Source of the DNA: Escherichia coli
GTDB taxonomy: Bacteria; Pseudomonadota; Gammaproteobacteria; Enterobacterales; Enterobacteriaceae
Length of the DNA: 64,000 nt
Assembly (NCBI RefSeq): GCF_045037415.1
Contig: NZ_CP173438.1
Reading direction: 5' to 3' (one strand)
Shown here: piece by piece, positions 17,911 to 47,682 of the stretch
Numbering within the stretch: position 1 is the stretch's first letter
Layout of the letters: the number at the start of each line of letters is the position of its first letter
Made by a program: the position numbers and the translations under genes
Notes under the pieces: generated by a model
What the model saw: the letters and a program-made list of their open reading frames with translations, nothing else
Told to the model about the DNA's origin: nothing
Database searches by the model: none

Positions 17911-20900
17911 TTATTCCGGGCGCGGCTTCAGCGGGAAGCGGCGGCGCACCAGCACAAAGAACAGCGGCACGAAGTAAATAGCCAGAATAGTGGCCGAAAT
18001 CATCCCGCCCATTACGCCAGTACCCACCGCATGCTGACCACCGGAACCGGCACCTGTGCTGGTTGCCATTGGCAATACGCCGAAGATAAATGCCAGCGAG
18101 GTCATCAGAATCGGGCGTAAACGCTGACGGCAGGCGTGGAGCGTCGCTTCAAACAGGTCGTGGCCTTTTTGGTTCATCTCGTTAGCAAACTCGACGATCA
18201 GGATGGCGTTTTTCGCCGATAAACCAATGACCGTTAACAGGCCCACCTGGAAGTAAACATCGTTTTCCAGCCCGCGCATCCAGGTTGCCAGCAGCGCGCC
18301 GATAACCCCCAGCGGCACGACCAGCATTACCGAGAACGGCACCGACCAGCTTTCATACAGCGCAGCCAGACACAGGAATACCACCAGCAAGGAAATGGCG
18401 TACAGCGCCGGAGCCTGCGCGCCGGAAAGCCGCTCCTGATACGACATCGCCGTCCACTCCAGACCAAAGCCGTTTGGCAACTGCTTCACTAACGATTCCA
18501 TAATATCCATCGCCGTACCGGTACTGACCCCCGGTGCGGCTTCCCCAACAATCTCAACCGCAGAATAACCGTTATAGCGTTCCAGACGCGGCGAGCCTGT
18601 CTCCCAGCGTGAGGTCGCGAAAGCAGAGAAGGGCACCATGCCGCCATCTTTATTTCGGACATACCAGAGATTGATGTCATCTGGCAGCATGCGATACGGC
18701 GCAGCTGCCTGCACATAGACTTTCTTCACGCGACCGCGATCCATAAAGTCATTCACATAGCTCGAACCCCAGGCGGTTTGCAGTGTGTCGTTAATATCGT
18801 CGATAGCAACGCCCAGCGCCTGAGCTTTACGCTGGTCGATATCAATCTGCAACTGCGGACTGTCGTCGAGGCCGTTATGGCGCACACGGGTTAGCTCCGG
18901 GTTTTCCGCTGCCAGCGCCAGCAACTGGTTTCGTGCTGCCATCAGCGCATCGTGACCCGCTCCAGCGTGGTCCTGCAACTCCATATCAAAACCCGCAGAA
19001 CTACCAAGACCGCTAATTGCTGGCGGGCTGCTGGCGATAACGCGAGCTTCTTTAATCTTGTTAAACGCCTTCGTTGCACGCTCGATAATGGCAAACGAGG
19101 TGCCGGTCTTACTGTCGCGTTCGCTCCAGTCTTTCAGGCGGATAAACATTCGCGCCACGTTTTGCCCGTTCCCCCCAGGGCCAGAACCCACGGTGGCAAA
19201 CACCGACATGATGTTGTCTTTTTCATGGGTGAAGTAATATTTCTCGATTTGCTCAACGACTTTCAGGGTCTGTTGCTGGGTTGAACCGCTGGGCAACTGT
19301 ACCGAGGTAGTAAACATGCCACGGTCTTCCAGCGGTAAGAACGACGTCGGCAAACGCAGGAACAGGAACACCATGCCGCCAAGCAGCAGGACATAAATCA
19401 CAATCCAGCGCAGGCTACGGTGGAGAATTTTCGCCACCCCTTTTTCGTAGCGTTCGGCGTTGCGGTTAAACATCTGGTTAAACCAGGCAAAAAAGCCTTT
19501 TTGCCCGTGATGCTCACCTTTTTTCAGTGGCTTAAGTAGTGTGGCACACAGAGCCGGAGTGAGGATCATCGCTACCAGTACTGACAGCACCATCGCCGCA
19601 ACAATGGTAATAGAGAACTGGCGATAGATGGCACCGGTGGTGCCGCCGAAGAAGGCCATTGGCACAAATACCGCCGAAAGCACCATCGCAATCCCGACCA
19701 GTGCCCCCTGGATCTGCCCCATCGATTTACGTGTGGCTTCGCGAGGAGTGAGTCCTTCCTCACTCATAATACGTTCGACGTTTTCCACCACCACGATGGC
19801 ATCATCCACCAGCAGACCGATCGCCAGCACCATCGCGAACATGGTTAAGGTGTTGACGCTATAGCCGAAGGCATAAAGCACCGAGAAGGTTCCCATCAAC
19901 ACCACCGGCACGGCGATAGTGGGTATCAGCGTGGCGCGGAAGTTTTGCAGGAACAGATACATAACGAGGAAAACCAGGGCGATAGCTTCCAGAAGCGTTT
20001 TCACCACGTCTTCAATGGAGGCTTTTACAAAAGAGGTGGTTTCATACGCCACCTTGTATTCCAGTCCGTGTGGAAAATACTGCGCCAGCTCGTCGAGACG
20101 ATTGAGCACCAGCTCCGCTGTCGCCATTTCGTTCGCGCCGGAGGCCAGTTTTACCCCCAGCCCGGAGGCTGGCTTACCATTGAAGCGGCTAAGATAATCG
20201 TATTTCTCCGCCCCCATTTCGACGGTGGCGACATCGCCCAGCCTTACCTCTGAGCCGTCCTGATTCACCCGCAAGGTGATATCGCGGAACTGTTCTGGTG
20301 TTTGCAGCAGTGACTGGGCGTTAATGGTGGCGTTGAGCGCCTGCTTATCGACGGAAGGCGTACCACCAAGTTGCCCAACCGCAATCTGCGCGTTCTGTGA
20401 TTCAATGGCATCGGTGACATCTTTAGCCGTCATCTGGAAACTGTTGAGTTTCGCCGGGTCCAGCCAGATACGCATGGAATATTGCGAACCATAGGCATCG
20501 ATATCCCCGACGCCATTCACGCGGCTTAACGGGTCCTGAATATTACTGGCAACATAATCGGCAATATCCTGTTTATCCATCGAACCATCGGTAGAGACGA
20601 AGGCAATGGTCAGAATGTTGGTATCGCCGGTTTTACGCACCGTCACGCCCTGATTTTGCACCGCCTGCGGTAACTTTCGCATGGCTGATTGCAGCTGGTT
20701 TTGTACTTGCTGCACGGCTTCGTCCGGATCGGTGCCTGCTTTAAAACTTAACGTGACAGATGCCTGACCGGTGCCGCTGCTCTGAGATGACATATACATC
20801 AGATTATCGAGGCCGGTCATATTTTGCTCGATAACCTGGGTCACGGTGTTTTCCAGCGTCTGGGCCGATGCGCCGGGATAGTTAGCGGTCACTCGCACAT

Positions 20901-21024
20901 TCGGTGGCGCGAGATCGGGGTATTGTTCAACGGGCAATGAAAAAATCGCCAGGGTACCTGTCAGACACAACAGGATTGCCAGCACCCAGGCAAAAATGGG
21001 GCGATCAATAAAGAAATTCGCCAT
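17911..21024 (-). CDS. acrD: RND aminoglycoside efflux pump AcrD
   Basis: 1037 aa, [41 protein letters not shown]..., 12-TM RND transporter. Confidence 0.97.
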
Positions 21025-21093
21025 TAAAAGAGGACCTCGTGTTTCTGCGTATCGTTGTAGGCTTGGCTTGCTTCACTGTAGCGGCAAGGTACG

Positions 21094-21111
21094 AGCCAAT
21101 CGTGGAGAAAA
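21094..21111 (-). promoter_or_regulatory. BaeR response-regulator box in acrD promoter
   Basis: Minus-strand TTTTTCTCCACGATTGGC matches the BaeR consensus TTTTTCTCCATDATTGGC at 17/18 positions, about 70 bp upstream of acrD start. Confidence 0.6.
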
Positions 21112-21187
21112 AAAGGAGTTAATGTAAATTATCATGCCCTTTTATACTGAACCTTAAGTGCCACTATTCTTTGGTCAATAAGAGGCA

Positions 21188-22888
21188 TTACATCAGCTGA
21201 CTTTCCTCACCCTCCGCAGAGCGAAAGCTAATACTCACTAACGTGCCGCCGCCGGAAGGTTGTGAAAAAGTCAGCGTCCCACCCAATCTTTCCGCGCGTT
21301 CGCGCATGATATTCAGACCATAATGGCCTTCGGGTTCTTTCGGTTCACCGATGCCAATCCCGTTGTCGCGAATATAGACTGTGTGATTGCCATCCGGCGC
21401 GGTGACGCAGCTAACGGCGATTTCGCTGGCGTTGGCGTGCTTCATCGCATTCAGCACCGCTTCGCGAATAATTTGCAACAAATGCACCTGCATTTGCGCA
21501 TCCAGCGCCAGGGTTGGCAGACGGCAGTCGAGGGTCAGTTTGGCGCTGGTTTGATTTTGTAACGTATCCAGCATTTCCCTCAACGCGGAGGGGAGATCCG
21601 CCTGCTGCAGCGTCAGGCGGAAAGTAGTCAACAGCTCGCGTAACTGCCGATAAGCATCATTCAACGCCTGGGAAAAATCGGCCATGATACTTTGTGCGGT
21701 GGCGTTATCTTCCGGTATCGAACGCTTCAGTAACGTCAACTGGATACGTAAGTAAGAAAGTACCTGAGCCAGCGAGTCGTGCAATTCGCGGGCGATGGTC
21801 GCACGTTCTTCCATCAACAATAACTGCTGAAAATGCTTCTGCGCCTGATTAAAGTACAAACCGCGTCCCAGCATCGACGAAACGCTGTTAAGCAGCGGTT
21901 CTGATGATGAAACGTGACTATTTTGCCAGTGCAGTTCTCCGTAAACCGTCTCTTGCATTGTCACCGGTAAAATCTGCATCGGCAATTCCGGGTTTGGCTG
22001 CCCTTCGCTAATCCGCCAGTTGTCACCGACATTTAACTCCAGATATTCAGCCGCTTCATTGTCGCGAACAATCTGCAAAATATGGCGGAAACAATGCACA
22101 TCAATCTGGCTGGTGTTTAGCGCCTGCGAACACTGATACAACACCTCCAGACGACGCTTGGCCTCGTGGAGATCGCGGGTCTTTTCTTCTACTGACGCCT
22201 CCAGCGAACGGTACAATTTATGCAGCTCGCTCGACATCTGGTTAAAGGTTTTTGCAAGCAGGCCAAGCTCATTCGGCAGGCTGGTATCCAGCGGCGGCGA
22301 GTCGAACTGCCCGTGTTCAATACGCTGACTGGCGGTAACCAGCTGATTCAGCGGGGCAACCACCTGATGGCGTATGCGGCGCAAAGTAAAAAAGACCAGC
22401 GTGAAAATACCGATGCCGCCAGCCAGGGAAATTGCCACCACCAGCAGCATTTTGCGTTCAGCGTAGTGCTGTAAAGCCAGCACGAACAGGTCTATCTGAT
22501 TAACATAATTATTAATATTGGCCTGATACCACGGCAAGTCGCCCTTGCTGAGCCGATTATTCATCTCCAGCCAGTTGGCATTCAGATGCGCATAGCGGGT
22601 TTTTACTGCCTCTGGCACATACCAGACGTTGAGATTGGTTAATACCGGTGAATGCAGTGCCTGCTGAAATAACTGGCGATGTGCATTGAGTTGTGGACTG
22701 CCACTTTGCAAGTCGTAGCCCAGGCGGTAACTCTGCATACGCAGCGATCCGGCAATATTGATAGCCTCAGCGTCGCGTAAACTGCTCGCCAGCGTTAGCA
22801 GAGCGATACCCGTGGAAAGAATCGACAGCAGCACAATGTAAAAAAAGGCCCGGGCCAGACTGGCCGAGACGGGTCGTTTAACAATCAC
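21188..22888 (-). CDS. narQ: Nitrate/nitrite sensor histidine kinase NarQ
   Basis: ORF 21188..22903; NarQ N-terminus (M)IVKRPVSASLARAFFYIVLL corresponds to GTG at 22888; HAMP and HisKA_3/ATPase regions. Confidence 0.93.
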   Translation of the reverse strand: MIVKRPVSASLARAFFYIVLLSILSTGIALLTLASSLRDAEAINIAGSLRMQSYRLGYDLQSGSPQLNAHRQLFQQALHSPVLTNLNVWYVPEAVKTRYAHLNANWLEMNNRLSKGDLPWYQANINNYVNQIDLFVLALQHYAERKMLLVVAISLAGGIGIFTLVFFTLRRIRHQVVAPLNQLVTASQRIEHGQFDSPPLDTSLPNELGLLAKTFNQMSSELHKLYRSLEASVEEKTRDLHEAKRRLEVLYQCSQALNTSQIDVHCFRHILQIVRDNEAAEYLELNVGDNWRISEGQPNPELPMQILPVTMQETVYGELHWQNSHVSSSEPLLNSVSSMLGRGLYFNQAQKHFQQLLLMEERATIARELHDSLAQVLSYLRIQLTLLKRSIPEDNATAQSIMADFSQALNDAYRQLRELLTTFRLTLQQADLPSALREMLDTLQNQTSAKLTLDCRLPTLALDAQMQVHLLQIIREAVLNAMKHANASEIAVSCVTAPDGNHTVYIRDNGIGIGEPKEPEGHYGLNIMRERAERLGGTLTFSQPSGGGTLVSISFRSAEGEESQLM

Positions 22889-32549: not shown

Positions 32550-32796
32550 GTTTAGCTGCAATATATTAGTAAAGTTTATTACTGAGTTTGCGAATAATAA
32601 AAAAATCAGTATATAAAATATCTCGATATTATTTTATTTATATTCATGCGTTGTATATGAAAATTTATGCACCACAGCAAATATCTCTCCATTCTTAGTG
32701 ATCTACCTCACCTTTTAAACGCGCTTGCCGAATTTTGTTATTTACTCTGACGAAAAATTGTCACGATACACGAAAGTTTTTCACAGGCGGCGACTC

Positions 32797-33132
32797 ATGG
32801 ATAAAGAACGCATCATTCAGGAATTTGTGCCCGGTAAACAGGTCACACTGGCGCATCTCATCGCGCATCCCGGCGAGGAACTGGCGAAGAAAATCGGCGT
32901 TCCGGATGCGGGCGCAATCGGCATTATGACGCTAACTCCCGGAGAAACGGCGATGATCGCCGGTGATTTAGCGTTGAAAGCCGCCGATGTGCATATCGGT
33001 TTTCTCGATCGTTTTAGTGGCGCGCTGGTGATTTATGGCTCGGTGGGCGCAGTAGAAGAAGCGTTATCACAAACCGTCAGTGGTTTAGGACGCTTATTAA
33101 ATTATACGCTTTGTGAAATGACCAAAAGTTAA
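32797..33132 (+). CDS. eutS: Ethanolamine utilisation microcompartment shell protein EutS
   Basis: ATG 32797 gives [32 protein letters not shown]..., 111 aa BMC domain. Confidence 0.93.
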
Positions 33133-33144
33133 TACGAGGCATTC

Positions 33145-33624
33145 ATGAAACGAATTGCGTTTGTGGGTACCGTCGGGGCAGGAAAAACAACGTTATTTAA
33201 TGCGTTGCAGGGGAATTATACCCTCGCAAGAAAAACACAGGCCGTGGAATTTAATGATAATGGCGATATTGATACGCCGGGTGAATATTTTAGCCATCCC
33301 CGCTGGTATCACGCCTTAATTACCACGCTACAGGATGTGGATATGCTGATCTATGTCCACGGCGCGAATGACCCGGAAAGTCGGTTGCCTGCCGGGTTGC
33401 TGGATATTGGCGTCAGCAAACGGCAAATCGCCGTCATCAGTAAAACGGACATGCCAGATGCTGACGTCGCCGCAACGCGAAAGTTATTGCTTGAGACGGG
33501 CTTCGAAGAGCCGATTTTCGAGCTAAACAGCCACGACCCGCAAAGCGTGCAGCAACTGGTGGATTATCTGGCATCTCTCACCAAACAGGAGGAAGCAGGT
33601 GAAAAAACTCATCACAGCGAATGA
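33145..33624 (+). CDS. eutP: Ethanolamine utilisation GTPase/acetate kinase-like EutP
   Basis: 159 aa, P-loop GTVGAGKTT. Confidence 0.93.
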   Translation: MKRIAFVGTVGAGKTTLFNALQGNYTLARKTQAVEFNDNGDIDTPGEYFSHPRWYHALITTLQDVDMLIYVHGANDPESRLPAGLLDIGVSKRQIAVISKTDMPDADVAATRKLLLETGFEEPIFELNSHDPQSVQQLVDYLASLTKQEEAGEKTHHSE

Positions 33625-34300
33625 TATTCGTGAAGCACACGCGCGCGGCGAACTGGCAATGTCCGTGGTTCTGCGCGCCAGCATTATTACCCCGGAAGCT
33701 CGTGAAGTGGCTGATCTGTTGGGTTTTACCATCACCGAATGTGATGAATCGATCCCGGTAACGGCGTCTGTTCCCGCCAGCGCATCAGCCGATAAAACCG
33801 AAAGCCAGCGCATCCGTGAAACCATTATCGCCCAACTGCCGGAAGGTCAGTTTACCGAAAGCCTGGTCGCGCAGCTGATGGAAAAAGTGATGAAGGAAAA
33901 ACAGTCGCTGGAACAGGGTGCACTGCAGCCGAGCTTTAAATCGGTGACCGGCAAAGGCGGCATCAAAGTTATTGATGGCAGCAGCGTCAAGTTTGGTCGT
34001 TTCGATGGCGCGGAACCGCACTGCGTAGGCTTGACTGATCTCGTGACCGGAGACGACGGCAGCAGTATGGCCGCTGGTTTCATGCAGTGGGAGAACGCCT
34101 TCTTTCCGTGGACCCTGAACTACGACGAAATCGACATGGTGCTGGAAGGGGAGCTGCATGTTCGCCACGAAGGCGAAACTATGATCGCCAAAGCGGGCGA
34201 TGTGATGTTTATCCCGAAAGGCTCCAGCATCGAATTTGGTACGACATCCAGCGTGAAATTCCTGTATGTCGCCTGGCCGGCTAACTGGCAATCCTTATGA
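33599..34300 (+). CDS. eutQ: Ethanolamine utilisation cupin-fold acetate kinase EutQ
   Basis: 233 aa, MKKLITANDIREAHARGELAMSVVLRASIITPEAREVADL...; start overlaps eutP by 26 nt. Confidence 0.93.
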   Translation: MKKLITANDIREAHARGELAMSVVLRASIITPEAREVADLLGFTITECDESIPVTASVPASASADKTESQRIRETIIAQLPEGQFTESLVAQLMEKVMKEKQSLEQGALQPSFKSVTGKGGIKVIDGSSVKFGRFDGAEPHCVGLTDLVTGDDGSSMAAGFMQWENAFFPWTLNYDEIDMVLEGELHVRHEGETMIAKAGDVMFIPKGSSIEFGTTSSVKFLYVAWPANWQSL

Positions 34301-35100
34301 AAGATTTCATCACCGAAGCATGGCTAAGAGCGAACCATACGCTCAGCGAAGGCGCAGAGATCCATCTCCCTGCGGACAGTCGCCTGACGCCCTCTGCCCG
34401 GGAGTTACTGGAAAGCCGCCATCTGCGCATCAAGTTTATTGACGAGCAGGGCCGCCTGTTTGTTGACGATGAACAGCAGCAGCCGCAGCCCGTTCACGGG
34501 CTGACCAGTAGCGATGAACATCCGCAGGCGTGCTGCGAACTGTGCCGCCAGCCGGTGGCAAAAAAGCCGGATACGCTGACTCACCTGTCGGCGGAAAAAA
34601 TGGTTGCCAAAAGCGATCCGCGTCTGGGTTTTCGCGCTGTTCTCGACAGCACCATTGCGCTGGCAGTGTGGCTGCAAATTGAACTGGCAGAACCGTGGCA
34701 GCCGTGGCTGGCGGACATCCGCTCGCGTCTTGGCAACATTATGCGTGCCGATGCGCTGGGGGAACCGCTGGGCGAGCAAGCGATTGTCGGGCTTTCTGAC
34801 GAAGATCTGCATCGGCTTTCTCACCAGCCGCTGCGTTATCTCGACCACGATCATCTGGTGCCGGAAGCCAGCCACGGGCGCGATGCGGCGTTGCTCAATC
34901 TGCTACGCACCAAAGTGCGGGAAACAGAAACCGTAGCGGCGCAGGTCTTTATCACCCGCAGCTTTGAAGTATTACGCCCGGACATTTTGCAGGCGCTGAA
35001 CCGCCTTTCCAGCACGGTCTACGTGATGATGATCCTGAGCGTAACGAAGCAGCCGCTAACGGTGAAGCAGATCCAACAACGACTGGGGGAAACGCAATGA
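34297..35100 (+). CDS. eutT: Ethanolamine utilisation cob(I)alamin adenosyltransferase EutT
   Basis: 267 aa, [43 protein letters not shown]...; ATGA overlap with eutQ. Confidence 0.93.
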
Positions 35101-36113
35101 TTATTAAACGTTGTCGTGAACTGGCGTTGCGAGCGCCCGCCAGAGTAGTTTTTCCGGATGCGTTAGATCAACGTGTGCTGAAAGCTGCGCAATATTTACA
35201 TCAACAAGGTCTGGCAACGCCCATTCTGGTCGCCAATCCGTTTGAACTTCGTCAGTTTGCGCTCAGTCACGGCGTGGCGATGGACGGGCTACAGGTGATA
35301 GATCCGCATGGCAACCTCGCAATGCGGGAAGAATTTGCTCATCGCTGGCTGGCCCGCGCGGGCGAAAAAACGCCGCCGGATGCGCTGGAAAAACTTACCG
35401 ATCCGCTGATGTTCGCCGCTGCAATGGTCAGCGCCGGTAAAGCGGATGTCTGTATCGCGGGCAACCTCTCTTCCACGGCGAATGTGCTGCGTGCCGGATT
35501 ACGCATTATCGGCTTGCAGCCAGGCTGTAAAACGCTCTCATCCATTTTCCTGATGCTGCCACAGTACAGCGGTCCGGCGTTGGGTTTTGCCGATTGCAGC
35601 GTGGTGCCACAGCCGACGGCGGCACAACTGGCGGATATCGCGCTTGCCAGCGCCGAAACCTGGCGCGCCATCACCGGAGAAGAACCGCGCGTGGCGATGC
35701 TGTCGTTTTCCAGCAACGGTAGTGCCCGTCACCCCTGTGTTGCCAACGTCCAGCAGGCGACAGAAATCGTCCGTGAGCGCGCACCAAAGCTGGTTGTCGA
35801 TGGCGAGTTGCAGTTTGACGCCGCCTTCGTGCCGGAAGTGGCGGCGCAAAAAGCGCCTGCCAGCCCGTTACAGGGCAAAGCTAATGTGATGGTTTTTCCG
35901 TCGCTGGAAGCCGGAAATATTGGCTACAAAATCGCACAACGACTTGGCGGATATCGTGCCGTCGGGCCATTGATACAAGGACTTGCCGCGCCGATGCACG
36001 ATCTCTCTCGTGGTTGTAGCGTGCAGGAAATTATCGAACTGGCGCTGGTGGCAGCTGTGCCGCGTCAGACAGAAGTGAACCGCGAAAGCAGTTTACAAAC
36101 ACTGGTTGAATGA
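35097..36113 (+). CDS. eutD: Ethanolamine utilisation phosphotransacetylase EutD
   Basis: 338 aa PTA-family protein, [34 protein letters not shown]... Confidence 0.95.
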
Positions 36114-36151
36114 ACGGTCCCGTTCTGGACCCTGATAAAGAGGAAAGCACA

Positions 36152-36445
36152 ATGGAAGCATTAGGAATGATCGAAACCCGGGGCCTGGTTGCACTGATTG
36201 AGGCTTCTGACGCGATGGTTAAAGCTGCGCGCGTCAAGCTGGTTGGTGTTAAGCAGATTGGCGGCGGCCTGTGTACTGCCATGGTTCGTGGTGATGTTGC
36301 AGCCTGTAAAGCCGCGACCGATGCAGGTGCCGCAGCGGCACAGCGTATCGGCGAGCTGGTATCTGTACACGTTATCCCGCGTCCGCACGGCGACCTGGAA
36401 GAAGTCTTCCCGATCGGCCTGAAAGGCGATAGCAGCAACCTGTAA
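36152..36445 (+). CDS. eutM: Major BMC shell protein EutM
   Basis: ATG 36152 gives [39 protein letters not shown]..., 97 aa. Confidence 0.97.
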
Positions 36446-36551
36446 TCACCCTGTGTGACGTCGATTCGGGCGTCACGCTCTCTCCTTTTTCATTTTACCT
36501 TCTGCGGAGGGTAGGGGGAGCTTTTACCTGAAATACGCCACGGAGGCGGGT

Positions 36552-36839
36552 ATGAAACTGGCAGTCGTCACTGGACAAATTGTTTGTACCGTACGCCATC
36601 ACGGACTGGCGCATGACAAATTGCTGATGGTGGAAATGATTGATCCACAAGGTAATCCTGACGGGCAATGCGCCGTCGCCATCGACAATATTGGCGCGGG
36701 AACCGGGGAGTGGGTGTTACTGGTGAGTGGCAGTTCCGCCCGCCAGGCGCATAAAAGCGAAACGTCACCGGTCGATCTGTGCGTGATTGGCATTGTCGAT
36801 GAGGTGGTGTCTGGCGGTCAGGTCATTTTCCACAAATAA
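36552..36839 (+). CDS. eutN: BMC vertex (pentamer) protein EutN
   Basis: 95 aa, MKLAVVTGQIVCTVRHHGLAHDKLLMVEMIDPQGNPDGQ... Confidence 0.95.
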   Translation: MKLAVVTGQIVCTVRHHGLAHDKLLMVEMIDPQGNPDGQCAVAIDNIGAGTGEWVLLVSGSSARQAHKSETSPVDLCVIGIVDEVVSGGQVIFHK

Positions 36840-36850
36840 GGCAGAACATC

Positions 36851-38254
36851 ATGAATCAACAGGATATTGAACAGGTGGTGAAAGCGGTACTGCTGAAAAT
36901 GCAAAGCAGTGACACGCCGCCCGCCGCCGTTCATGAGATGGGCGTTTTCGCGTCCCTGGATGACGCCGTTGCGGCAGCCAAAGTCGCCCAGCAAGGGTTA
37001 AAAAGCGTGGCAATGCGCCAGTTAGCCATTGCTGCCATTCGTGAAGCAGGCGAAAAACACGCCAGAGATTTAGCGGAACTTGCCGTCAGTGAAACCGGCA
37101 TGGGGCGCGTTGAAGATAAATTTGCCAAAAACGTCGCTCAGGCGCGCGGCACACCAGGCGTTGAGTGCCTCTCTCCGCAAGTGCTGACTGGCGACAACGG
37201 CCCGACCCTGATTGAAAACGCACCCTGGGGCGTGGTGGCTTCAGTGACGCCTTCCACTAACCCGGCGGCAACCGTAATTAACAACGCCATCAGCCTGATT
37301 GCCGCGGGCAACAGCGTCATTTTTGCCCCGCATCCGGCGGCGAAAAAAGTCTCCCAGCGGGCGATTACGCTGCTCAACCTGGCGATTGTTGCCGCAGGCG
37401 GGCCGGAAAACTTACTGGTTACCGTAACAAATCCGGATATCGAAACCGCGCAACGCTTGTTCAAGTTTCCGGGCATCGGCCTTTTGGTGGTGACCGGCGG
37501 CGAAGCGGTAGTAGAAGCGGCGCGTAAACACACCAATAAACGTCTGATTGCCGCAGGCGCTGGCAACCCGCCGGTAGTGGTGGATGAAACCGCCGACCTC
37601 GCCCGTGCTGCTCAGTCCATCGTCAAAGGCGCTTCTTTCGATAACAACATCATTTGTGCCGACGAAAAGGTACTGATTGTTGTTGATAGCGTAGCCGATG
37701 AACTGATGCGTCTGATGGAAGGCCAGCATGCGGTGAAACTGACCGCAGAGCAGGCGCAGCAACTGCAATCGGTGTTGCTGAAAAATATCGACGAGCGCGG
37801 AAAAGGCACCGTCAGCCGTGACTGGGTTGGTCGCGATGCGGCGAAAATCGCGGCGGCAATCGGCCTTAAAGTTCCGGAACAAACGCGACTGCTGTTTGTA
37901 GAAACCACCGCAGAACATCCGTTTGCCGTGACCGAACTGATGATGCCGGTGCTGCCCGTCGTGCGCGTCGCCAACGTGGCGGATGCCATTGCGCTGGCGG
38001 TGAAACTGGAAGGCGGTTGCCACCACACGGCGGCAATGCACTCGCGCAATATCGAAAACATGAACCAGATGGCGAACGCCATTGATACCAGCATTTTCGT
38101 TAAGAACGGACCGTGTATTGCCGGGCTGGGGCTGGGCGGGGAAGGCTGGACCACGATGACCATCACCACGCCAACCGGTGAAGGGGTAACCAGCGCGCGG
38201 ACGTTTGTCCGTCTGCGTCGCTGTGTATTAGTCGATGCGTTTCGCATTGTTTAA
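36851..38254 (+). CDS. eutE: Acetaldehyde dehydrogenase (acetylating) EutE
   Basis: 467 aa aldehyde dehydrogenase family, MNQQDIEQVVKAVLLKMQSSD... Confidence 0.95.
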   Translation: MNQQDIEQVVKAVLLKMQSSDTPPAAVHEMGVFASLDDAVAAAKVAQQGLKSVAMRQLAIAAIREAGEKHARDLAELAVSETGMGRVEDKFAKNVAQARGTPGVECLSPQVLTGDNGPTLIENAPWGVVASVTPSTNPAATVINNAISLIAAGNSVIFAPHPAAKKVSQRAITLLNLAIVAAGGPENLLVTVTNPDIETAQRLFKFPGIGLLVVTGGEAVVEAARKHTNKRLIAAGAGNPPVVVDETADLARAAQSIVKGASFDNNIICADEKVLIVVDSVADELMRLMEGQHAVKLTAEQAQQLQSVLLKNIDERGKGTVSRDWVGRDAAKIAAAIGLKVPEQTRLLFVETTAEHPFAVTELMMPVLPVVRVANVADAIALAVKLEGGCHHTAAMHSRNIENMNQMANAIDTSIFVKNGPCIAGLGLGGEGWTTMTITTPTGEGVTSARTFVRLRRCVLVDAFRIV

Positions 38255-38264
38255 GGAGTAACCG

Positions 38265-39101
38265 ATGGCGCACGATGAACAATGGCTCACCCCACGTCTG
38301 CAAACGGCGGCAACGCTGTGTAACCAGACGCCCGCCGCGACGGAATCTCCGCTGTGGCTGGGGGTGGATCTGGGCACCTGCGATGTGGTGTCGATGGTTG
38401 TCGACCGCGACGGTCAGCCGGTGGCGGTATGCCTCGACTGGGCCGATGTGGTCCGCGACGGCATCGTCTGGGATTTCTTCGGTGCGGTCACCATTGTTCG
38501 TCGCCATCTCGACACCCTTGAGCAGCAATTCGGTCGCCGTTTTAGCCATGCGGCGACCTCATTTCCTCCTGGTACGGACCCGCGTATTTCCATCAACGTG
38601 CTGGAGTCTGCCGGACTGGAAGTGAGCCATGTGCTGGATGAGCCAACCGCAGTTGCGGATCTGCTGCAACTGGACAACGCCGGTGTAGTGGATATCGGCG
38701 GCGGCACTACCGGCATTGCCATCGTGAAAAAGGGCAAAGTGACGTACTCGGCGGATGAAGCCACCGGCGGACATCACATCTCTCTGACTCTCGCCGGAAA
38801 TCGCCGTATTTCGCTGGAAGAGGCAGAGCAGTACAAACGCGGTCACGGTGACGAGATTTGGCCCGCGGTGAAACCGGTGTACGAAAAAATGGCGGACATT
38901 GTGGCCCGTCATATTGAAGGGCAGGGCATTACGGATTTATGGCTGGCGGGCGGTTCCTGTATGCAACCGGGCGTAGCGGCGCTGTTTTGCAAACAATTTC
39001 CGGCGTTACAGGTGCATTTACCGCAGCACAGTTTGTTTATGACCCCGCTGGCAATCGCCAGTAGTGGGCGAGAGAAAGCGGAGGGGCTATATGCAAAATG
39101 A
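38265..39101 (+). CDS. eutJ: Ethanolamine utilisation chaperonin-like protein EutJ (Hsp70/actin fold)
   Basis: 278 aa, MAHDEQWLTPRLQTAATLCNQ...DIGGGTTGIAIV. Confidence 0.93.
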   Translation: MAHDEQWLTPRLQTAATLCNQTPAATESPLWLGVDLGTCDVVSMVVDRDGQPVAVCLDWADVVRDGIVWDFFGAVTIVRRHLDTLEQQFGRRFSHAATSFPPGTDPRISINVLESAGLEVSHVLDEPTAVADLLQLDNAGVVDIGGGTTGIAIVKKGKVTYSADEATGGHHISLTLAGNRRISLEEAEQYKRGHGDEIWPAVKPVYEKMADIVARHIEGQGITDLWLAGGSCMQPGVAALFCKQFPALQVHLPQHSLFMTPLAIASSGREKAEGLYAK

Positions 39102-40278
39102 ATTGCAGACCGCGCTCTTTCAGGCGTTCGATACCCTGAATCTGCAACGGGTAAAAACATTTAGCGTTCCACCGGTGACGCTTTGCGGTCCGGGCGCGGT
39201 GAGCAGTTGTGGGCAGCAAGCGCAAACGCGTGGGTTGAAACATCTGTTCGTGATGGCAGACAGCTTTTTGCATCAGGCAGGGATGACCGCTGGGCTGACG
39301 CGTAGCCTGGCCGTTAAAGGTATCGCCATGACGCTCTGGCCATGTCCGGTGGGCGAACCGTGCATCACCGACGTGTGTGCAGCCGTGGCGCAGTTGCGTG
39401 AATCAGGTTGTGACGGGGTGATCGCGTTTGGCGGCGGCTCGGTGCTGGATGCGGCGAAAGCCGTGGCGTTGCTGGTGACGAACCCGGATAGCACGCTGGC
39501 AGAAATGTCAGAAACCAGCGTTCTGCAACCGCGCCTGCCGTTGATTGCCATTCCAACGACCGCCGGAACCGGCTCTGAAACCACCAACGTGACGGTGATT
39601 ATCGATGCGGTAAGCGGGCGCAAACAGGTGTTAGCCCATGCCTCGCTGATGCCGGATGTCGCGATTCTCGACGCTGTGCTAACCGAAGGCGTGCCGTCGC
39701 ATGTCACGGCGATGACTGGCATTGATGCGTTAACCCATGCCATTGAAGCGTACAGCGCGCTGAACGCTACACCGTTTACCGACAGCCTGGCGATTGGCGC
39801 CATTGCGATGATTGGTCAATCGCTGCCGAAAGCGGTGGGCTACGGTCACGACCTTGTCGCCCGCGAGAGCATGTTGCTGGCTTCATGTATGGCGGGAATG
39901 GCGTTTTCCAGCGCCGGGCTTGGGTTATGCCACGCGATGGCGCATCAGCCAGGGGCGGCGCTGCATATTCCGCACGGTCTGGCGAACGCCATGTTGCTGC
40001 CAACGGTGATGGAATTTAACCGGATGGTTTGTCGTGATCGGTTTAGTCAGATTGGTCGGGCGCTGCGAACTAAAAAATCCGACGATCGTGACGCTATTAA
40101 TGCGGTAAGTGAGCTGATAGCGGAAGTTGGGATCAACAAGCGGCTGGCTGATGTGGGTGCAACAACCGGGCATTACGGTGCATGGGCGCAGGCCGCGCAG
40201 GAAGATATTTGTCTGCGCAGTAACCCGCGTACCGCCAGCCTCGAGCAGATTGTCGGCCTGTACGCAGCGGCGCAATAA
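39091..40278 (+). CDS. eutG: Iron-containing alcohol dehydrogenase EutG
   Basis: ATG 39091 gives MQNELQTALFQAFDTLNLQRVKTFSVPPVTLCGPGAVSSCG..., 395 aa; overlaps eutJ by 11 nt. Confidence 0.93.
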   Translation: MQNELQTALFQAFDTLNLQRVKTFSVPPVTLCGPGAVSSCGQQAQTRGLKHLFVMADSFLHQAGMTAGLTRSLAVKGIAMTLWPCPVGEPCITDVCAAVAQLRESGCDGVIAFGGGSVLDAAKAVALLVTNPDSTLAEMSETSVLQPRLPLIAIPTTAGTGSETTNVTVIIDAVSGRKQVLAHASLMPDVAILDAVLTEGVPSHVTAMTGIDALTHAIEAYSALNATPFTDSLAIGAIAMIGQSLPKAVGYGHDLVARESMLLASCMAGMAFSSAGLGLCHAMAHQPGAALHIPHGLANAMLLPTVMEFNRMVCRDRFSQIGRALRTKKSDDRDAINAVSELIAEVGINKRLADVGATTGHYGAWAQAAQEDICLRSNPRTASLEQIVGLYAAAQ

Positions 40279-40279
40279 A

Positions 40280-40464
<185 letters not shown>

Positions 40465-40494
40465 ATAAATAACAACTAACAGGGAGTAAAGGCG

Positions 40495-41721
40495 ATGGGA
40501 ATTAACGAAATCATCATGTACATCATGATGTTCTTTATGCTGATAGCTGCCGTAGACAGGATCCTGTCGCAGTTCGGCGGTTCTGCTCGTTTCCTCGGTA
40601 AGTTCGGTAAAAGTATCGAAGGATCCGGCGGTCAGTTCGAAGAAGGCTTTATGGCAATGGGCGCTCTGGGCCTGGCTATGGTCGGTATGACCGCACTGGC
40701 ACCGGTACTGGCCCACGTTCTCGGACCGGTGATTATCCCGGTTTACGAAATGCTCGGCGCAAACCCGTCAATGTTCGCCGGAACACTGCTGGCGTGCGAT
40801 ATGGGCGGCTTCTTCCTCGCCAAAGAGCTGGCGGGCGGTGACGTAGCAGCGTGGCTATACTCTGGGTTAATTCTCGGGTCGATGATGGGGCCAACGATTG
40901 TGTTTTCCATTCCGGTGGCGCTCGGCATTATCGAACCTTCTGACCGTCGTTATCTGGCGCTCGGCGTGCTGGCGGGCATAGTGACCATTCCGATTGGCTG
41001 TATCGCTGGTGGTCTGGTAGCGATGTACTCCGGTGTGCAGATCAACGGCCAGCCTGTTGAATTCACCTTTGCGCTGATCCTGATGAACATGATCCCGGTA
41101 CTTATCGTTGCGGTGCTGGTGGCGCTGGGGCTGAAATTCATCCCGGAAAAAATGATCAACGGCTTCCAGATCTTCGCCAAATTCCTCGTTGCATTGATCA
41201 CCCTCGGTCTTGCCGCTGCGGTAGTGAAATTCCTCCTTGGCTGGGAACTGATCCCGGGCCTTGATCCTATCTTTATGGCCCCTGGCGATAAACCCGGTGA
41301 AGTGATGCGCGCCATTGAAGTTATCGGCTCGATCTCCTGCGTTCTGTTAGGGGCGTATCCAATGGTACTGCTGCTGACTCGCTGGTTTGAAAAACCGCTG
41401 ATGAGCGTCGGTAAGGTGCTGAATATGAACAATATCGCGGCAGCCGGCATGGTGGCAACGCTTGCCAACAACATTCCGATGTTTGGCATGATGAAGCAGA
41501 TGGATACCCGCGGCAAAGTCATCAACTGTGCCTTCGCCGTTTCCGCTGCTTTCGCGCTGGGCGACCATTTAGGCTTCGCCGCTGCCAACATGAACGCCAT
41601 GATCTTCCCGATGATTGTCGGCAAATTGATCGGCGGCGTAACGGCAATTGGCGTGGCGATGATGCTGGTGCCAAAAGAAGACGCGAGCGCGGCTAAAACC
41701 GAAGCGGAGGCGCAATCGTGA
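40495..41721 (+). CDS. eutH: Ethanolamine permease EutH
   Basis: 408 aa polytopic membrane protein, MGINEIIMYIMMFFMLIAAVDRIL... Confidence 0.95.
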   Translation: MGINEIIMYIMMFFMLIAAVDRILSQFGGSARFLGKFGKSIEGSGGQFEEGFMAMGALGLAMVGMTALAPVLAHVLGPVIIPVYEMLGANPSMFAGTLLACDMGGFFLAKELAGGDVAAWLYSGLILGSMMGPTIVFSIPVALGIIEPSDRRYLALGVLAGIVTIPIGCIAGGLVAMYSGVQINGQPVEFTFALILMNMIPVLIVAVLVALGLKFIPEKMINGFQIFAKFLVALITLGLAAAVVKFLLGWELIPGLDPIFMAPGDKPGEVMRAIEVIGSISCVLLGAYPMVLLLTRWFEKPLMSVGKVLNMNNIAAAGMVATLANNIPMFGMMKQMDTRGKVINCAFAVSAAFALGDHLGFAAANMNAMIFPMIVGKLIGGVTAIGVAMMLVPKEDASAAKTEAEAQS

Positions 41722-43121
41722 ACACTCGCCAGCTACTGAGCGTCGGTATCGATATCGGCACCACCACCACCCAGGTGATCTTCTCCCACCTGGAGCTGGT
41801 TAACCGTGCGGCGGTGTCGCAGGTGCCGCGCTACGAATTCATCAAACGCGAAATTAGCTGGCAAAGCCCGGTGTTCTTTACCCCTGTCGATAAACAGGGT
41901 GGTTTAAAAGAAGCGGAACTGAAAACCTTAATCCTCGAGCAATATCAGGCTGCGGGCATTGCGCCGGAAAGCGTTGATTCTGGTGCCATCATCATCACCG
42001 GTGAAAGCGCGAAAACCCGCAACGCTCGCCCGGCGGTGATGGCGCTCTCTCGGTCGCTGGGCGATTTTGTCGTCGCCAGCGCCGGGCCGCATCTCGAATC
42101 CGTGATCGCCGGTCACGGTGCCGGGGCGCAAACCCTTTCTGAACAACGGCTGTGTCGGGTACTGAATATCGACATCGGCGGTGGCACCGCGAACTACGCC
42201 CTGTTCGATGCCGGAAAAATCAGCGGCACTGCCTGCCTCAACGTCGGCGGTCGCCTGCTGGAAACCGACAGCCAGGGGCGCGTGGTTTACGCTCATAAAC
42301 CGGGGCAGATGATTGTGGATGAGTGCTTCGGCCCAGGCACTGACGCCCGTTCGCTGACCGGCGCGCAATTGGCGCAGGTTACCCGCCGGATGGCGGAACT
42401 GATTGTCGAAGTGATTGACGGAACGCTCTCGCCGCTCGCGCAGGCATTGATGCAAACCGGTTTGCTGCCCGCAGGTGTTACGCCCGAAATCATTACGCTT
42501 TCTGGCGGGGTAGGCGAATGTTATCGCCACCAGCCCGCCGACCCGTTCTGTTTTGCCGATATCGGCCCGCTTCTGGCAACGGCGCTGCATGACCATCCGC
42601 GTCTGCGTGAGATGAACGTGCAGTTTCCGGCGCAAACCGTGCGCGCCACGGTGATTGGCGCGGGTGCACATACCCTTTCGCTCTCTGGCAGCACAATATG
42701 GCTGGAGGGCGTACAACTGCCGCTGCGCAATTTGCCGGTGGCGATCCCGATTGATGAAACGGATCTGGTCAGTGCCTGGCAACAGGCGCTGATTCAACTG
42801 GATCTTTGCCCCAAAACTGACGCGTACGTGCTGGCGCTTCCCGCCTCGCTGCCTGTGCGTTACGCCGCGGTACTGACGGTCATCAACGCGCTGGTCGATT
42901 TCGTCGCGCGTTTTCCGAATCCGCATCCCCTGCTGGTGGTGGCCGGGCAGGACTTTGGTAAAGCTCTGGGCATGTTGTTGCGCCCACAGCTACAACAACT
43001 CCCGTTGGCAGTCATTGACGAAGTGATTGTCCGCGCGGGGGACTATATCGACATTGGTACGCCTCTTTTTGGCGGATCGGTTGTGCCGGTGACGGTGAAA
43101 TCACTCGCATTTCCTTCCTGA
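41718..43121 (+). CDS. eutA: Ethanolamine ammonia-lyase reactivase EutA
   Basis: 467 aa, MNTRQLLSVGIDIGTTTTQVIFSHLELVNRAA...; ATGA-type overlap with eutH. Confidence 0.95.
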   Translation: MNTRQLLSVGIDIGTTTTQVIFSHLELVNRAAVSQVPRYEFIKREISWQSPVFFTPVDKQGGLKEAELKTLILEQYQAAGIAPESVDSGAIIITGESAKTRNARPAVMALSRSLGDFVVASAGPHLESVIAGHGAGAQTLSEQRLCRVLNIDIGGGTANYALFDAGKISGTACLNVGGRLLETDSQGRVVYAHKPGQMIVDECFGPGTDARSLTGAQLAQVTRRMAELIVEVIDGTLSPLAQALMQTGLLPAGVTPEIITLSGGVGECYRHQPADPFCFADIGPLLATALHDHPRLREMNVQFPAQTVRATVIGAGAHTLSLSGSTIWLEGVQLPLRNLPVAIPIDETDLVSAWQQALIQLDLCPKTDAYVLALPASLPVRYAAVLTVINALVDFVARFPNPHPLLVVAGQDFGKALGMLLRPQLQQLPLAVIDEVIVRAGDYIDIGTPLFGGSVVPVTVKSLAFPS

Positions 43122-43132
43122 GGGAACGACTT

Positions 43133-44494
43133 ATGAAACTAAAGACCACATTGTTCGGCAATGTATATCAGTTTAAGGATGTAAAAGAGGTGCTGGCTAA
43201 AGCCAACGAACTGCGTTCGGGGGATGTGCTGGCGGGCGTTGCTGCGGCAAGCTCACAGGAGCGCGTGGCGGCAAAGCAGGTGTTGTCGGAAATGACTGTA
43301 GCGGACATCCGCAATAATCCGGTGATTGCCTATGAAGATGACTGCGTGACGCGGCTGATTCAGGACGACGTTAACGAAACGGCCTACAACCAGATTAAAA
43401 ACTGGAGCATCAGCGAACTGCGTGAGTATGTGCTGAGCGATGAAACCAGCGTGGATGACATTGCCTTTACCCGCAAAGGGCTGACCTCGGAAGTGGTGGC
43501 GGCGGTAGCGAAGATTTGCTCCAACGCGGACCTGATCTACGGCGCGAAGAAAATGCCGGTGATCAAAAAGGCCAATACCACCATCGGTATTCCGGGCACC
43601 TTCAGCGCCCGCTTGCAGCCGAACGATACCCGTGACGACGTGCAAAGTATCGCCGCGCAAATCTACGAAGGGCTTTCCTTCGGGGTGGGCGATGCGGTGA
43701 TCGGCGTTAACCCGGTGACTGACGACGTGGAAAACTTAAGCCGCGTGTTGGATACCATCTATGGCGTGATCGACAAATTCAACATCCCAACTCAGGGCTG
43801 CATACTGGCGCACGTCACTACCCAAATCGAAGCGATTCGTCGCGGCGCACCAGGCGGGCTGATTTTCCAGAGTATCTGCGGCAGCGAAAAAGGGCTGAAA
43901 GAGTTTGGCGTAGAGCTGGCGATGCTCGATGAAGCACGCGCAGTGGGCGCGGAGTTCAACCGTATCGCCGGGGAAAACTGCCTCTACTTCGAAACCGGAC
44001 AAGGTTCGGCGCTGTCTGCTGGCGCGAACTTCGGCGCAGACCAGGTGACGATGGAAGCGCGTAACTATGGGCTGGCGCGTCATTACGATCCGTTTATCGT
44101 CAACACTGTGGTCGGCTTTATTGGGCCGGAGTATCTCTACAACGACCGCCAGATTATCCGCGCAGGCTTAGAAGATCACTTTATGGGCAAACTGAGCGGC
44201 ATCTCTATGGGCTGTGACTGCTGCTACACCAACCACGCTGACGCTGACCAGAACCTCAACGAAAACCTGATGATCCTGCTCGCCACCGCAGGCTGCAACT
44301 ACATCATGGGGATGCCGCTGGGCGATGACATCATGCTCAACTATCAGACCACCGCATTCCACGACACTGCCACTGTGCGTCAGTTACTGAATCTGCGCCC
44401 GTCACCGGAGTTTGAACGCTGGCTGGAAAGCATGGGCATTATGGCAAACGGTCGCCTGACCAAACGGGCGGGCGATCCGTCACTGTTCTTCTGA
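43133..44494 (+). CDS. eutB: Ethanolamine ammonia-lyase heavy chain EutB
   Basis: 453 aa, MKLKTTLFGNVYQFKDVKEVLAKANELRSGDVLAGV... Confidence 0.97.
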   Translation: MKLKTTLFGNVYQFKDVKEVLAKANELRSGDVLAGVAAASSQERVAAKQVLSEMTVADIRNNPVIAYEDDCVTRLIQDDVNETAYNQIKNWSISELREYVLSDETSVDDIAFTRKGLTSEVVAAVAKICSNADLIYGAKKMPVIKKANTTIGIPGTFSARLQPNDTRDDVQSIAAQIYEGLSFGVGDAVIGVNPVTDDVENLSRVLDTIYGVIDKFNIPTQGCILAHVTTQIEAIRRGAPGGLIFQSICGSEKGLKEFGVELAMLDEARAVGAEFNRIAGENCLYFETGQGSALSAGANFGADQVTMEARNYGLARHYDPFIVNTVVGFIGPEYLYNDRQIIRAGLEDHFMGKLSGISMGCDCCYTNHADADQNLNENLMILLATAGCNYIMGMPLGDDIMLNYQTTAFHDTATVRQLLNLRPSPEFERWLESMGIMANGRLTKRAGDPSLFF

Positions 44495-44514
44495 TGACGC
44501 GGAGATAACACATC

Positions 44515-45402
44515 ATGGATCAAAAACAGATTGAAGAAATTGTACGCAGCGTGATGGCGTCAATGGGACAAGCGGCCCCCGCGCCGTCAGAAGCAAAGTG
44601 CGCCACCACCACCTGTGCGGCACCGGTGACCTCGGAAAGCTGCGCGCTGGATTTAGGTTCTGCGGAAGCAAAAGCGTGGATTGGTGTTGAAAACCCGCAT
44701 CACGCAGACGTATTAACAGAACTGCGTCGCAGCACCGTGGCCCGCGTTTGTACCGGTCGTGCCGGTCCGCGTCCGCGCACCCAGGCGTTGCTGCGTTTCC
44801 TGGCCGATCACTCTCGTTCGAAAGATACCGTTCTGAAAGAAGTACCGGAAGAGTGGGTGAAAGCGCAGGGCTTGCTGGAAGTCCGCTCCGAAATCAGCGA
44901 CAAAAATCTCTACCTGACTCGCCCGGATATGGGCCGCCGCCTGTGTGCAGAAGCTGTTGAAGCGCTGAAAGCACAGTGTGTTGCTAATCCGGACGTGCAG
45001 GTCGTTATTTCTGATGGCCTGTCAACTGATGCGATCACCGTGAACTACGAAGAGATCCTGCCGCCGCTGATGGCGGGCCTGAAGCAAGCCGGGCTGAAAG
45101 TCGGTACGCCATTCTTTGTACGTTATGGTCGCGTGAAGATTGAAGATCAGATCGGTGAGATCCTCGGCGCGAAAGTAGTGATCCTGCTGGTGGGCGAACG
45201 TCCGGGGTTGGGGCAGTCAGAAAGCCTCTCCTGCTACGCCGTTTACTCGCCGCGTATGGCGACCACCGTTGAGGCTGACCGCACTTGTATCTCTAACATT
45301 CACCAGGGCGGCACGCCGCCGGTTGAAGCCGCAGCCGTCATTGTGGATTTGGCGAAACGTATGCTGGAGCAGAAAGCATCCGGCATCAACATGACCCGAT
45401 AA
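44515..45402 (+). CDS. eutC: Ethanolamine ammonia-lyase light chain EutC
   Basis: 295 aa, [22 protein letters not shown]... Confidence 0.97.
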
Positions 45403-45411
45403 GGAGGCATC

Positions 45412-46071
45412 ATGCCAGCTTTAGATTTGATTCGACCGTCGGTAACCGCCATGCGGGTGATTGCCTCCGTTAACGCCGAATTTGCACGTGAACTGAAATT
45501 GCCGCCGCATATTCGTAGCCTCGGGCTGATTTCTGCTGATTCAGATGACGTCACCTACATTGCGGCTGACGAAGCGACCAAGCAGGCGATGGTCGAAGTG
45601 GTATATGGTCGCTCGCTGTATGCGGGCGCTGCACACGGCCCGTCACCGACTGCCGGTGAGGTGCTGATTATGCTTGGTGGACCAAACCCGGCGGAAGTGC
45701 GTGCTGGTCTGGATGCGATGGTTGCGAATATTGAAAATGGCGCTGCTTTCCAGTGGGCTAATGACGCAGAAAACACAGCCTTCCTGGCACATGTAGTTTC
45801 GCGTACCGGTTCTTATCTCTCATCAACCGCCGGGATCACGCTTGGCGATCCGATGGCGTATCTGGTGGCACCGCCGCTGGAAGCGACCTACGGCATTGAT
45901 GCAGCGTTGAAATCTGCCGACGTGCAGCTGGTGACCTATGTCCCGCCACCGTCTGAAACCAACTACTCGGCAGCATTTTTAACCGGTAGCCAGGCCGCGT
46001 GTAAAGCAGCCTGTAACGCCTTTACCGATGCAGTGCTGGAAATCGCGCGTAATCCAATCCAGCGTGCGTAA
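45412..46071 (+). CDS. eutL: BMC shell protein EutL (tandem BMC domains)
   Basis: 219 aa, [41 protein letters not shown]... Confidence 0.95.
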
Positions 46072-46083
46072 CGGAGGTTGCCG

Positions 46084-46584
46084 ATGATCAATGCACTGGG
46101 ATTGCTGGAAGTGGACGGCATGGTCGCCGCGATAGATGCAGCTGATGCCATGCTCAAAGCAGCTAACGTTCGTCTGCTCAGTCACGAAGTGCTTGACCCT
46201 GGTCGCCTAACGCTGGTGGTGGAAGGCGATCTGGCGGCGTGTCGTGCGGCGCTGGACGCAGGTTGTGCTGCCGCGATGCGTACCGGGCGTGTCATCAGCC
46301 GCAAGGAGATCGGTCGGCCAGACGATGACACCCAGTGGCTGGTTACTGGCTTTAACCGCCAGCCTAAGCAACCCGTAAAGGAACCCGACGCGCCAGTTAT
46401 CGTCGCGGAATCTGCTGACGAGTTGTTGGCGCTGTTAACATCAGTACGTCAGGGAATGACGGCAGGAGAAGTGGCTGCCCACTTTGGCTGGCCGCTGGAA
46501 AAAGCCAGAAATGCGCTCGAACAGCTCTTTTCTGCCGGGACGTTACGTAAACGCAGTAGTCGTTACCGTCTCAAGCCCCATTAA
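46084..46584 (+). CDS. eutK: BMC shell protein EutK (BMC domain plus C-terminal helix-turn-helix-like tail)
   Basis: ATG 46084 gives MINALGLLEVDGMVAAIDAADAMLKAANVRLL..., 166 aa. Confidence 0.93.
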   Translation: MINALGLLEVDGMVAAIDAADAMLKAANVRLLSHEVLDPGRLTLVVEGDLAACRAALDAGCAAAMRTGRVISRKEIGRPDDDTQWLVTGFNRQPKQPVKEPDAPVIVAESADELLALLTSVRQGMTAGEVAAHFGWPLEKARNALEQLFSAGTLRKRSSRYRLKPH

Positions 46585-46629
46585 CCTGTCGGAGGTGCCG
46601 GGTGTCCTACAACACCCGGCATTAACATC

Positions 46630-47682
46630 ATGAAAAAGACCCGTACAGCCAATTTGCACCATCTTTATCATGAACCCTTACCCGAAAACCTGAAGCTCAC
46701 GCCGAAGGTCGAAGTGGATAATGTTCATCAACGACAGACAACGGACGTCTATGAACATGCTTTGACAATTACCGCCTGGCAGCAGATTTACGATCAGCTG
46801 CATCCGGGCAAGTTTCATGGTGAATTTACGGAAATTCTACTCGATGATATTCAGGTTTTTCGTGAATACACTGGTCTGGCGCTGCGTCAGTCGTGCCTGG
46901 TCTGGCCGAACTCGTTCTGGTTTGGCATTCCGGCGACGCGCGGTGAGCTGGGATTTATCGGTTCGCAATGTCTGGGAAGCGCAGAAATTGCGACGCGCCC
47001 GGGTGGAACCGAGTTTGAATTAAGTACGCCGGACGATTACACGATCCTTGGCGTAGTGCTTTCTGAAGATGTCATCACTCGTCAGGCTAACTTTTTGCAT
47101 AATCCGGATCGGGTATTACATATGCTGCGTAGCCAGTCGGCGCTGGAAGTGAAAGAGCAGCATAAAGCCGCTCTGTGGGGCTTTGTCCAACAGGCGCTGG
47201 CGACGTTTTGCGAGAACCCGGAAAATCTCCATCAGCCTGCAGTGCGAAAAGTGCTGGGGGATAATTTGCTCATGGCGATGGGGGCGATGCTGGAAGAAGC
47301 GCAGCCGATGATGACGGCGGAAAGCATCAGCCATCAGAGTTACCGCCGATTGCTTTCCCGCGCCCGTGAATATGTGCTGGAAAACATGTCCGAACCGGTG
47401 ACGGTGCTGGACTTGTGTAATCAACTGCATGTCAGCCGCCGCACGCTACAAAACGCATTTCACGCCATTTTGGGCATTGGTCCGAACGCGTGGCTGAAAC
47501 GTATTCGCCTGAACGCCGTGCGCCGCGAACTCATAAGTCCGTGGTCACAAAGCACAACGGTAAAAGACGCCGCCATGCAGTGGGGATTCTGGCATCTTGG
47601 GCAATTTGCCACGGATTATCAGCAACTGTTTGCCGAGAAGCCGTCACTGACGCTGCATCAGCGGATGCGAGAGTGGGGGTGA
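46630..47682 (+). CDS. eutR: AraC-family transcriptional activator of the eut operon
   Basis: 350 aa, C-terminal AraC HTH ([45 protein letters not shown]). Confidence 0.95.

Follow-up and report, generated by a model that had tools for sequence, protein, structure and literature searches.

The question raised by the acrD locus of Escherichia coli is whether the short BaeR-like motif in front of this efflux pump gene is the working operator by which the BaeSR envelope-stress system controls it, and also whether the published 18-mer is the whole of that operator. We addressed it in one stretch of 64,000 nucleotides of an E. coli genome, called here the window. The site is already known, being the acrD BaeR box of the literature and of the regulon lists, and what the present analysis adds is its exact coordinates and strand, the circularity of its 17/18 consensus score, a longer module locked 28 bp from the -10, and a T-to-A change in E. 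coli. The features needed from the outset are the following:

17911 to 21024, minus strand: acrD coding sequence, an intact open reading frame of 1037 amino acids, annotated as acrD at equal coordinates in the near-identical SK1144
21188 to 22888, minus strand: narQ coding sequence, the upstream neighbour, with its stop codon 163 bp before the acrD ATG
21035 to 21038, minus strand: Shine-Dalgarno GAGG of acrD, kept as GAGG(T) about 10 nt before the ATG in our gapped alignment A3
21095 to 21112, minus strand: 18-bp BaeR box TTTTTCTCCACGATTGGC, the only match in the window and identical in K-12

The box is contained in the 163-bp narQ-acrD intergenic region. The 501-bp stretch around the box was matched in 5424 of 5426 complete E. 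coli genomes, with 100% identity to SK1144 and 96.2% to K-12, and there are two differences from SK1144 in the first 26 kb of the window. The operator and the -10 are identical to those of K-12, and the 60-bp core from 21134 to 21075 is identical in 5335 of the 5386 matching E. coli records. Several substitutions relative to K-12 are clustered at 21160-21196, i.e., at the narQ stop and the proximal spacer, next to the identical operator and -10. Elsewhere in the window, the gene order at 6541-8170 and 32796-47681 agrees with SK1144, the annotated eut genes form an unbroken run from eutS to eutR, and yfgO and bcp are adjacent, with the hyf-focB cluster, which we take to lie between them in K-12, apparently absent. 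The only Rfam family in the window is naRNA4 (RF02564), matched at 40333-40414 on the plus strand between eutG and eutH (75.5 bits versus a gathering threshold of 59.5), and no tRNA was found in the window. The baeSR genes themselves are located outside it.

When both strands of the window were searched with up to 3 mismatches for the BaeR consensus TTTTTCTCCATDATTGGC, as quoted in PMC3915751 and PMC3799227, only TTTTTCTCCACGATTGGC was returned. This minus-strand match runs from 21112 to 21095 and departs from the consensus at position 11 alone, where it has C instead of T, and its score is therefore 17/18. The preliminary description had reported this same motif at 21094-21111; its match was reproduced, and its coordinates were one base off. 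The box is on the acrD strand and precedes the ATG (21024) by 88 to 71 bp, in agreement with the distance of about 70-90 bp given before. From the base composition of the window, only 2e-4 matches with at most 1 mismatch are expected per window and 0.016 per 5-Mb genome, and shuffled sequence gives 0.14 matches per window at up to 3 mismatches. A shorter BaeR consensus, TCTNCANAA, has also been quoted (PMC3799227), and TCTCCACGA, read from the sequence, agrees with it at 8 of 9 positions.

We suggest keeping in mind how the published consensus was built. The K-12 boxes are TTTTTCTCCATAATTGGC at spy, TTTTTCTCCCTTATTGGC at mdtA and TTTTTCTCCACGATTGGC at acrD, and the consensus is the exact column majority of these three, with its 'D' being their A, T and G. 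The acrD site thus helped to define the motif to which it is compared, and its 17/18 score, while reproduced, is partly circular as an independent statistic. The comparison free of this circularity is that of the boxes with each other, as had also been proposed beforehand, and here the acrD box is identical to the spy box at 16/18 positions and to the mdtA box at 15/18.

Strong independent evidence for the site comes from its conservation among Enterobacterales. Taking one genome per species and the N-terminal 300 amino acids of AcrD as the query, we collected 80 loci (identity 80-100%) spanning from Escherichia to Erwinia, Pantoea, Yersinia and Serratia. When the 400 bp in front of acrD were scanned with the consensus, the best match fell on the gene strand in 79/80 loci, and these best matches nearly always contain TTTCTCCACG(A/T)TT, such that the core of the box is kept in the orthologous promoters of essentially all 80 species. 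This core does not stand by itself, given that it closes a module of about 37 bp that reads, across the 80 species, TTTACA, N3, TCTCC, N6, TCTCCACG(A/T)TT, with TCTCCACG(A/T) present in 64/80 species and near-variants in most of the others. When 75 upstream regions were anchored on the core, two conserved islands emerged that go well beyond the anchor, GATAATTTACAyTaTCTCCTyaaTTTCTCCACGwTTG and CCGCTAcAGTG, with an information content of practically zero between and outside them, in agreement with alignment A3. The narQ-proximal spacer is the least conserved part. In the window, the contrast between this narQ-side spacer and the operator is sharp, with constraint beginning at about 21135. The elements of the module are located as follows:

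21097 to 21133, minus strand: the whole conserved operator block GATAATTTACATTAACTCCTTTTTTTCTCCACGATTG, delimited by the information-content profile of the 75 anchored regions and by alignment A3
21103 to 21108, minus strand: proximal repeat TCTCCA, the core of the box, with invariant columns in alignment A3
21114 to 21119, minus strand: middle repeat ACTCCT, which is TCTCCT in other genera, 11 bp before the proximal repeat
21123 to 21128, minus strand: distal element TTTACA, 20 bp before the proximal repeat

Counting the offsets from the T of TCTCCA, the distal TTTACA is found at -20 in 74/80 species, the middle repeat.CT[CT]C at -11 in 76/80 (as TCTCC in 61/80), and a hexamer TAnnnT (TACAGT, TAAAGT, TAGAGT or TACATT) at exactly +28 in 79/80. 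The CTCC cores of the middle and proximal repeats, at 21118-21115 and 21107-21104, are 11 bp apart, which is the phasing of direct repeats of the OmpR/PhoB type. The published 18-mer is, in this sense, the promoter-proximal part of a longer and deeply conserved operator, whose distal TTTACA could be either a third BaeR-type repeat or a single CpxR half-site.

The hexamer at +28 brings the promoter into view, with two predicted features:

21075 to 21080, minus strand: predicted sigma-70 -10 hexamer TACAGT, 28 bp after the T of TCTCCA
21066 to 21070, minus strand: predicted transcription start at about 21068, with a leader of about 44 nt, deduced from the conserved -10

In alignment A3, T1, A2 and T6 of this hexamer are invariant and position 3 varies, a pattern characteristic of sigma-70 -10 elements. 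The box had been proposed as a positional anchor for the acrD promoter, and it serves well as such, with the -10-like hexamer keeping its exact distance of 28 bp from the TCTCCA core in all but one of the 80 species, while the predicted leader ranges from 41 to 351 nt. At a spacing of 17 bp, the -35 position reads ACGATT, which agrees with TTGACA at only 2/6 positions, and a consensus scan of 20900-21350 found neither a full sigma-70 promoter nor a terminator. A promoter without a consensus sigma-70 sequence is what is expected if it depends on an activator, although such a result is of no help in placing it. With TACAGT as the predicted -10, the box would cover about -44 to -27, and, since the start is itself a prediction, so is this overlap of the operator with the -35 region. 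Searches of the literature gave no usable account of a mapped acrD transcription start or of the BaeR site as direct repeats.

The dependence of acrD on BaeR has been documented in K-12, in which this region is identical to that of the window. In 5% ethanol, acrD in the baeR knockout compared with the wild type shows a log2FC of -2.9, i.e., it is about 7.5-fold down, versus -0.2 without stimulation (PMC7657598 Data Set S5). The deletion of baeS abolishes the tungstate induction of acrD (PMC13209484), and an acrD-lux reporter needs both baeS and baeR to be supplied for its response to indole (PMC4780735). Envelope-stress control of acrD, as the preliminary description had it, is thus well founded for ethanol, tungstate and indole, and the lack of BaeR-dependent induction that it had named as grounds for giving up the assignment is contradicted by these three lines of evidence. 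The acrD box combines a sequence match with a position in the promoter, on the same strand as acrD, whose BaeR dependence is taken from the literature. Only four BaeR sites have been reported in E. coli, namely those of spy, mdt-bae, acrD and ycaC (PMC2731931), and secondary sources list acrD as directly regulated by BaeR and as having a reported BaeR site (PMC2731931, PMC10052836).

Among the close relatives of the acrD box, that of mdtA, in the promoter of the mdtABCD-baeSR operon, has evidence of binding in vivo. As at acrD, this box contains the core TTTTTCTCC...ATTGGC, with 15/18 positions identical, and it has a second CTCC repeat upstream, at 10 bp instead of the 11 bp of acrD. It lies 54-71 bp from its ATG and immediately upstream of the -10-like hexamers TAGTAT (+23) and TATCAT (+26), and, unlike acrD, it has no distal TTTACA element. 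BaeR ChIP-exo peak_5 (2153931-2153967, 37 bp, TCATAATTCCTCCATTTTTCTCCCTTATTGGCTGGCT) encloses the mdtA box (2153945-2153962) together with both CTCC repeats, in contrast with acrD, which has no such peak. The motif is therefore present in a site occupied by BaeR, where its absence from footprinted sites had been named as the other possible objection. Peak_6 at mdtA covers the -10-like TAGTATCAT region (K-12 mdtA, L003 432-499).

The spy box is a perfect 18/18 match to the consensus and lies 139-156 bp from the spy ATG, with a second TCTCCA 22 bp upstream of it. Like acrD, it has a hexamer, TACACT, 28 bp downstream, which we had considered as support for the -10 and then dropped, since the spy ChIP-exo peaks suggest an active promoter further downstream; the working spy promoter may be located there, with the shared +28 hexamer being coincidental. 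Unlike at mdtA, these two peaks are found beside the perfect box, about 50-90 bp on either side of it (K-12 spy, L004 2678-2844), and the downstream one covers a stretch containing the CpxR-like GTAAAG. With the spy peaks flanking the box, the operator architecture may differ between BaeR targets.

Beyond BaeR itself, the PhoB pho box and the operators of the OmpR family in general are direct repeats bound by a winged-helix regulator, at or over the -35 of a promoter without a -35 consensus. In classical pho boxes, the last repeat is 10 bp from the -10, and the distance to the predicted -10 at acrD would be longer. The footprint of DzrR, a related OmpR-family regulator, falls on two CTCCAT repeats with a spacing of 11 bp, and its box, CTCCAT-N5-CTCCAT, has the CTCCA core and the 11-bp phase in common with the acrD block (PMC10052836). 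The DzrR and PhoB operators differ from the acrD block in belonging to other proteins, and the latter has a third, divergent upstream element. The acrD site of Erwinia amylovora is homologous to that of E. coli, and its published 18-mer, TTCTTCACGATTACTGGC, contains the TTCT(T/C)CACGATTA core of other Erwinia loci (PMC3915751); some 150-165 bp separate it from the ATG, with a leader longer than in E. coli. Compared with the register given by homology, the published alignment of TTCTTCACGATTACTGGC to the consensus appears to be displaced by 3 nt; when aligned like the E. coli box, the homologous Erwinia sites (L064 and L068, some 155-158 bp before acrD) read AATTTCTCCACGATTATC.

Taken in the light of these systems, we consider it very probable that the motif at 21095-21112 is the promoter-proximal part of a BaeR operator, where BaeR~P would bind the repeats and recruit RNA polymerase. 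BaeR is a response regulator of the OmpR/PhoB family, whose members recognise direct repeats spaced by one turn of the helix, in many cases across a -35 that is defective, and the CTCC cores 11 bp apart at acrD, the 37-bp peak at mdtA and the DzrR footprint all fit tandem binding of BaeR~P. When the envelope is stressed by indole, tungstate, copper or zinc, or ethanol, BaeS phosphorylates BaeR, and according to this mechanism BaeR~P would then bind head-to-tail to the helically phased direct repeats of the operator, with TTTACA at -20, (A/T)CTCCT at -11 and TCTCCA at 0, thus occupying from about -60 (or -50) to -27 relative to the predicted start near 21068. The bound BaeR~P would supply the contact that the absent -35 does not provide and bring in RNA polymerase, increasing the transcription of acrD, and the promoter, lacking a usable -35, would not fire without BaeR~P. 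In this scheme, the transcription start, the recruitment mechanism, and how many BaeR molecules bind and in which orientation, are inferred.

Within this conserved operator, E. coli carries a difference of its own. Position 21119, the first base of the middle repeat, is an A on the minus strand (TTAACTCC), in place of the T present in nearly all other Enterobacterales (ATCTCC). The T is also found at the equivalent position in E. albertii (L007) and in a divergent representative labelled 'E. coli' (L006). Among the complete E. coli records, the 60-mer with the A is exact in 5335/5386, and the version with the T is exact in none. Judging by these sequence comparisons, T has been replaced by A at 21119, and the change is fixed in E. 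coli specifically, at an operator position that is otherwise near-invariant; it could weaken the BaeR site. We would not go further than a tentative and rather doubtful proposal that the functional operator is the entire three-element phased module of about 37 bp, placed 28 bp from the -10 throughout the Enterobacterales, and that the A of E. coli weakens its occupancy by BaeR. If this were true, a weakened occupancy could explain why the ChIP-exo signal is found at mdtA and not at acrD, and also the need for CpxR.

The same ChIP-exo result is the main ground for the alternative that survives best, namely that the block is needed for acrD control but is not bound by BaeR in vivo, with BaeR acting indirectly and another regulator (CpxR, EvgA or an unknown OmpR-family protein) working at the promoter. 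In a genome-wide study of K-12 in 5% ethanol, no BaeR ChIP-exo peak was found upstream of acrD, and the authors class the regulation as indirect; besides, acrD is down in the cpxR knockout, with a log2FC of -1.9 (PMC7657598, with the latter value in its Data Set S5). CpxR has also been reported to bind the acrD promoter, and a single CpxR half-site, GTAAA, at 21124-21128 on the plus strand coincides with the distal TTTACA (TTTAC on the minus strand). However, one negative ChIP-exo experiment, with one inducer and a signal-to-noise cut-off, carries little weight as evidence that BaeR is absent, and the acrD block shares its core with the mdtA site that lies under a BaeR peak. Furthermore, the tandem CpxR box GTAAA-N5-GTAAA was not found at up to 2 mismatches between 20647 and 22637, which includes the intergenic region. 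In reviews, CpxR is described as an enhancer at acrD whose effect is strictly BaeR-dependent (PMC2731931), and E. amylovora BaeR shifts the homologous 246-bp acrD upstream fragment in EMSA (PMC3915751). Indirect control without BaeR at the block is thus improbable in our view, and the GTAAA half-site could instead be the place where CpxR assists. In the whole window, the loose CpxR pattern GTAAANNNNNGTAAA occurs 62 times at up to 2 mismatches versus 40 +/- 6 in shuffles, an excess that is probably a compositional or codon effect.

A second alternative is that the block serves narQ, as a terminator or another 3' element, and resembles a BaeR site incidentally, given that it begins only about 55 bp past the narQ stop codon. 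We rejected a narQ terminator since the RNA fold of 21200..21120 is no better than that of shuffled sequence (z = -0.5), no terminator-like site was found there, and the block is locked to the acrD side, at a fixed 28 bp from the -10-like hexamer while its distance to the ATG varies about fourfold. The low conservation of the narQ-proximal spacer also argues against it, and a role in narQ is accordingly very improbable. As to a chance T-rich 18-mer without function, which could be suspected in AT-rich intergenic DNA with a score inflated by circularity, the expectation of 2e-4 per window, the presence of the core upstream of acrD in essentially all 80 species and its invariance across E. coli leave this idea with a practically negligible probability, and it is the conservation that rules it out.

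A direct BaeR operator in front of acrD is therefore the reading that we retain, and it leaves the current understanding of the BaeR/acrD system unchanged. The site is the point where the BaeSR signal reaches the acrD promoter, and it fixes this promoter, with TACAGT at 21080..21075 as the predicted -10 and transcription likely to start near 21068. Its importance lies in what follows from BaeSR-driven overexpression of AcrD, which in E. coli, Salmonella and Enterobacter contributes to tolerance to aminoglycosides, to beta-lactams including temocillin, to novobiocin and to metals.
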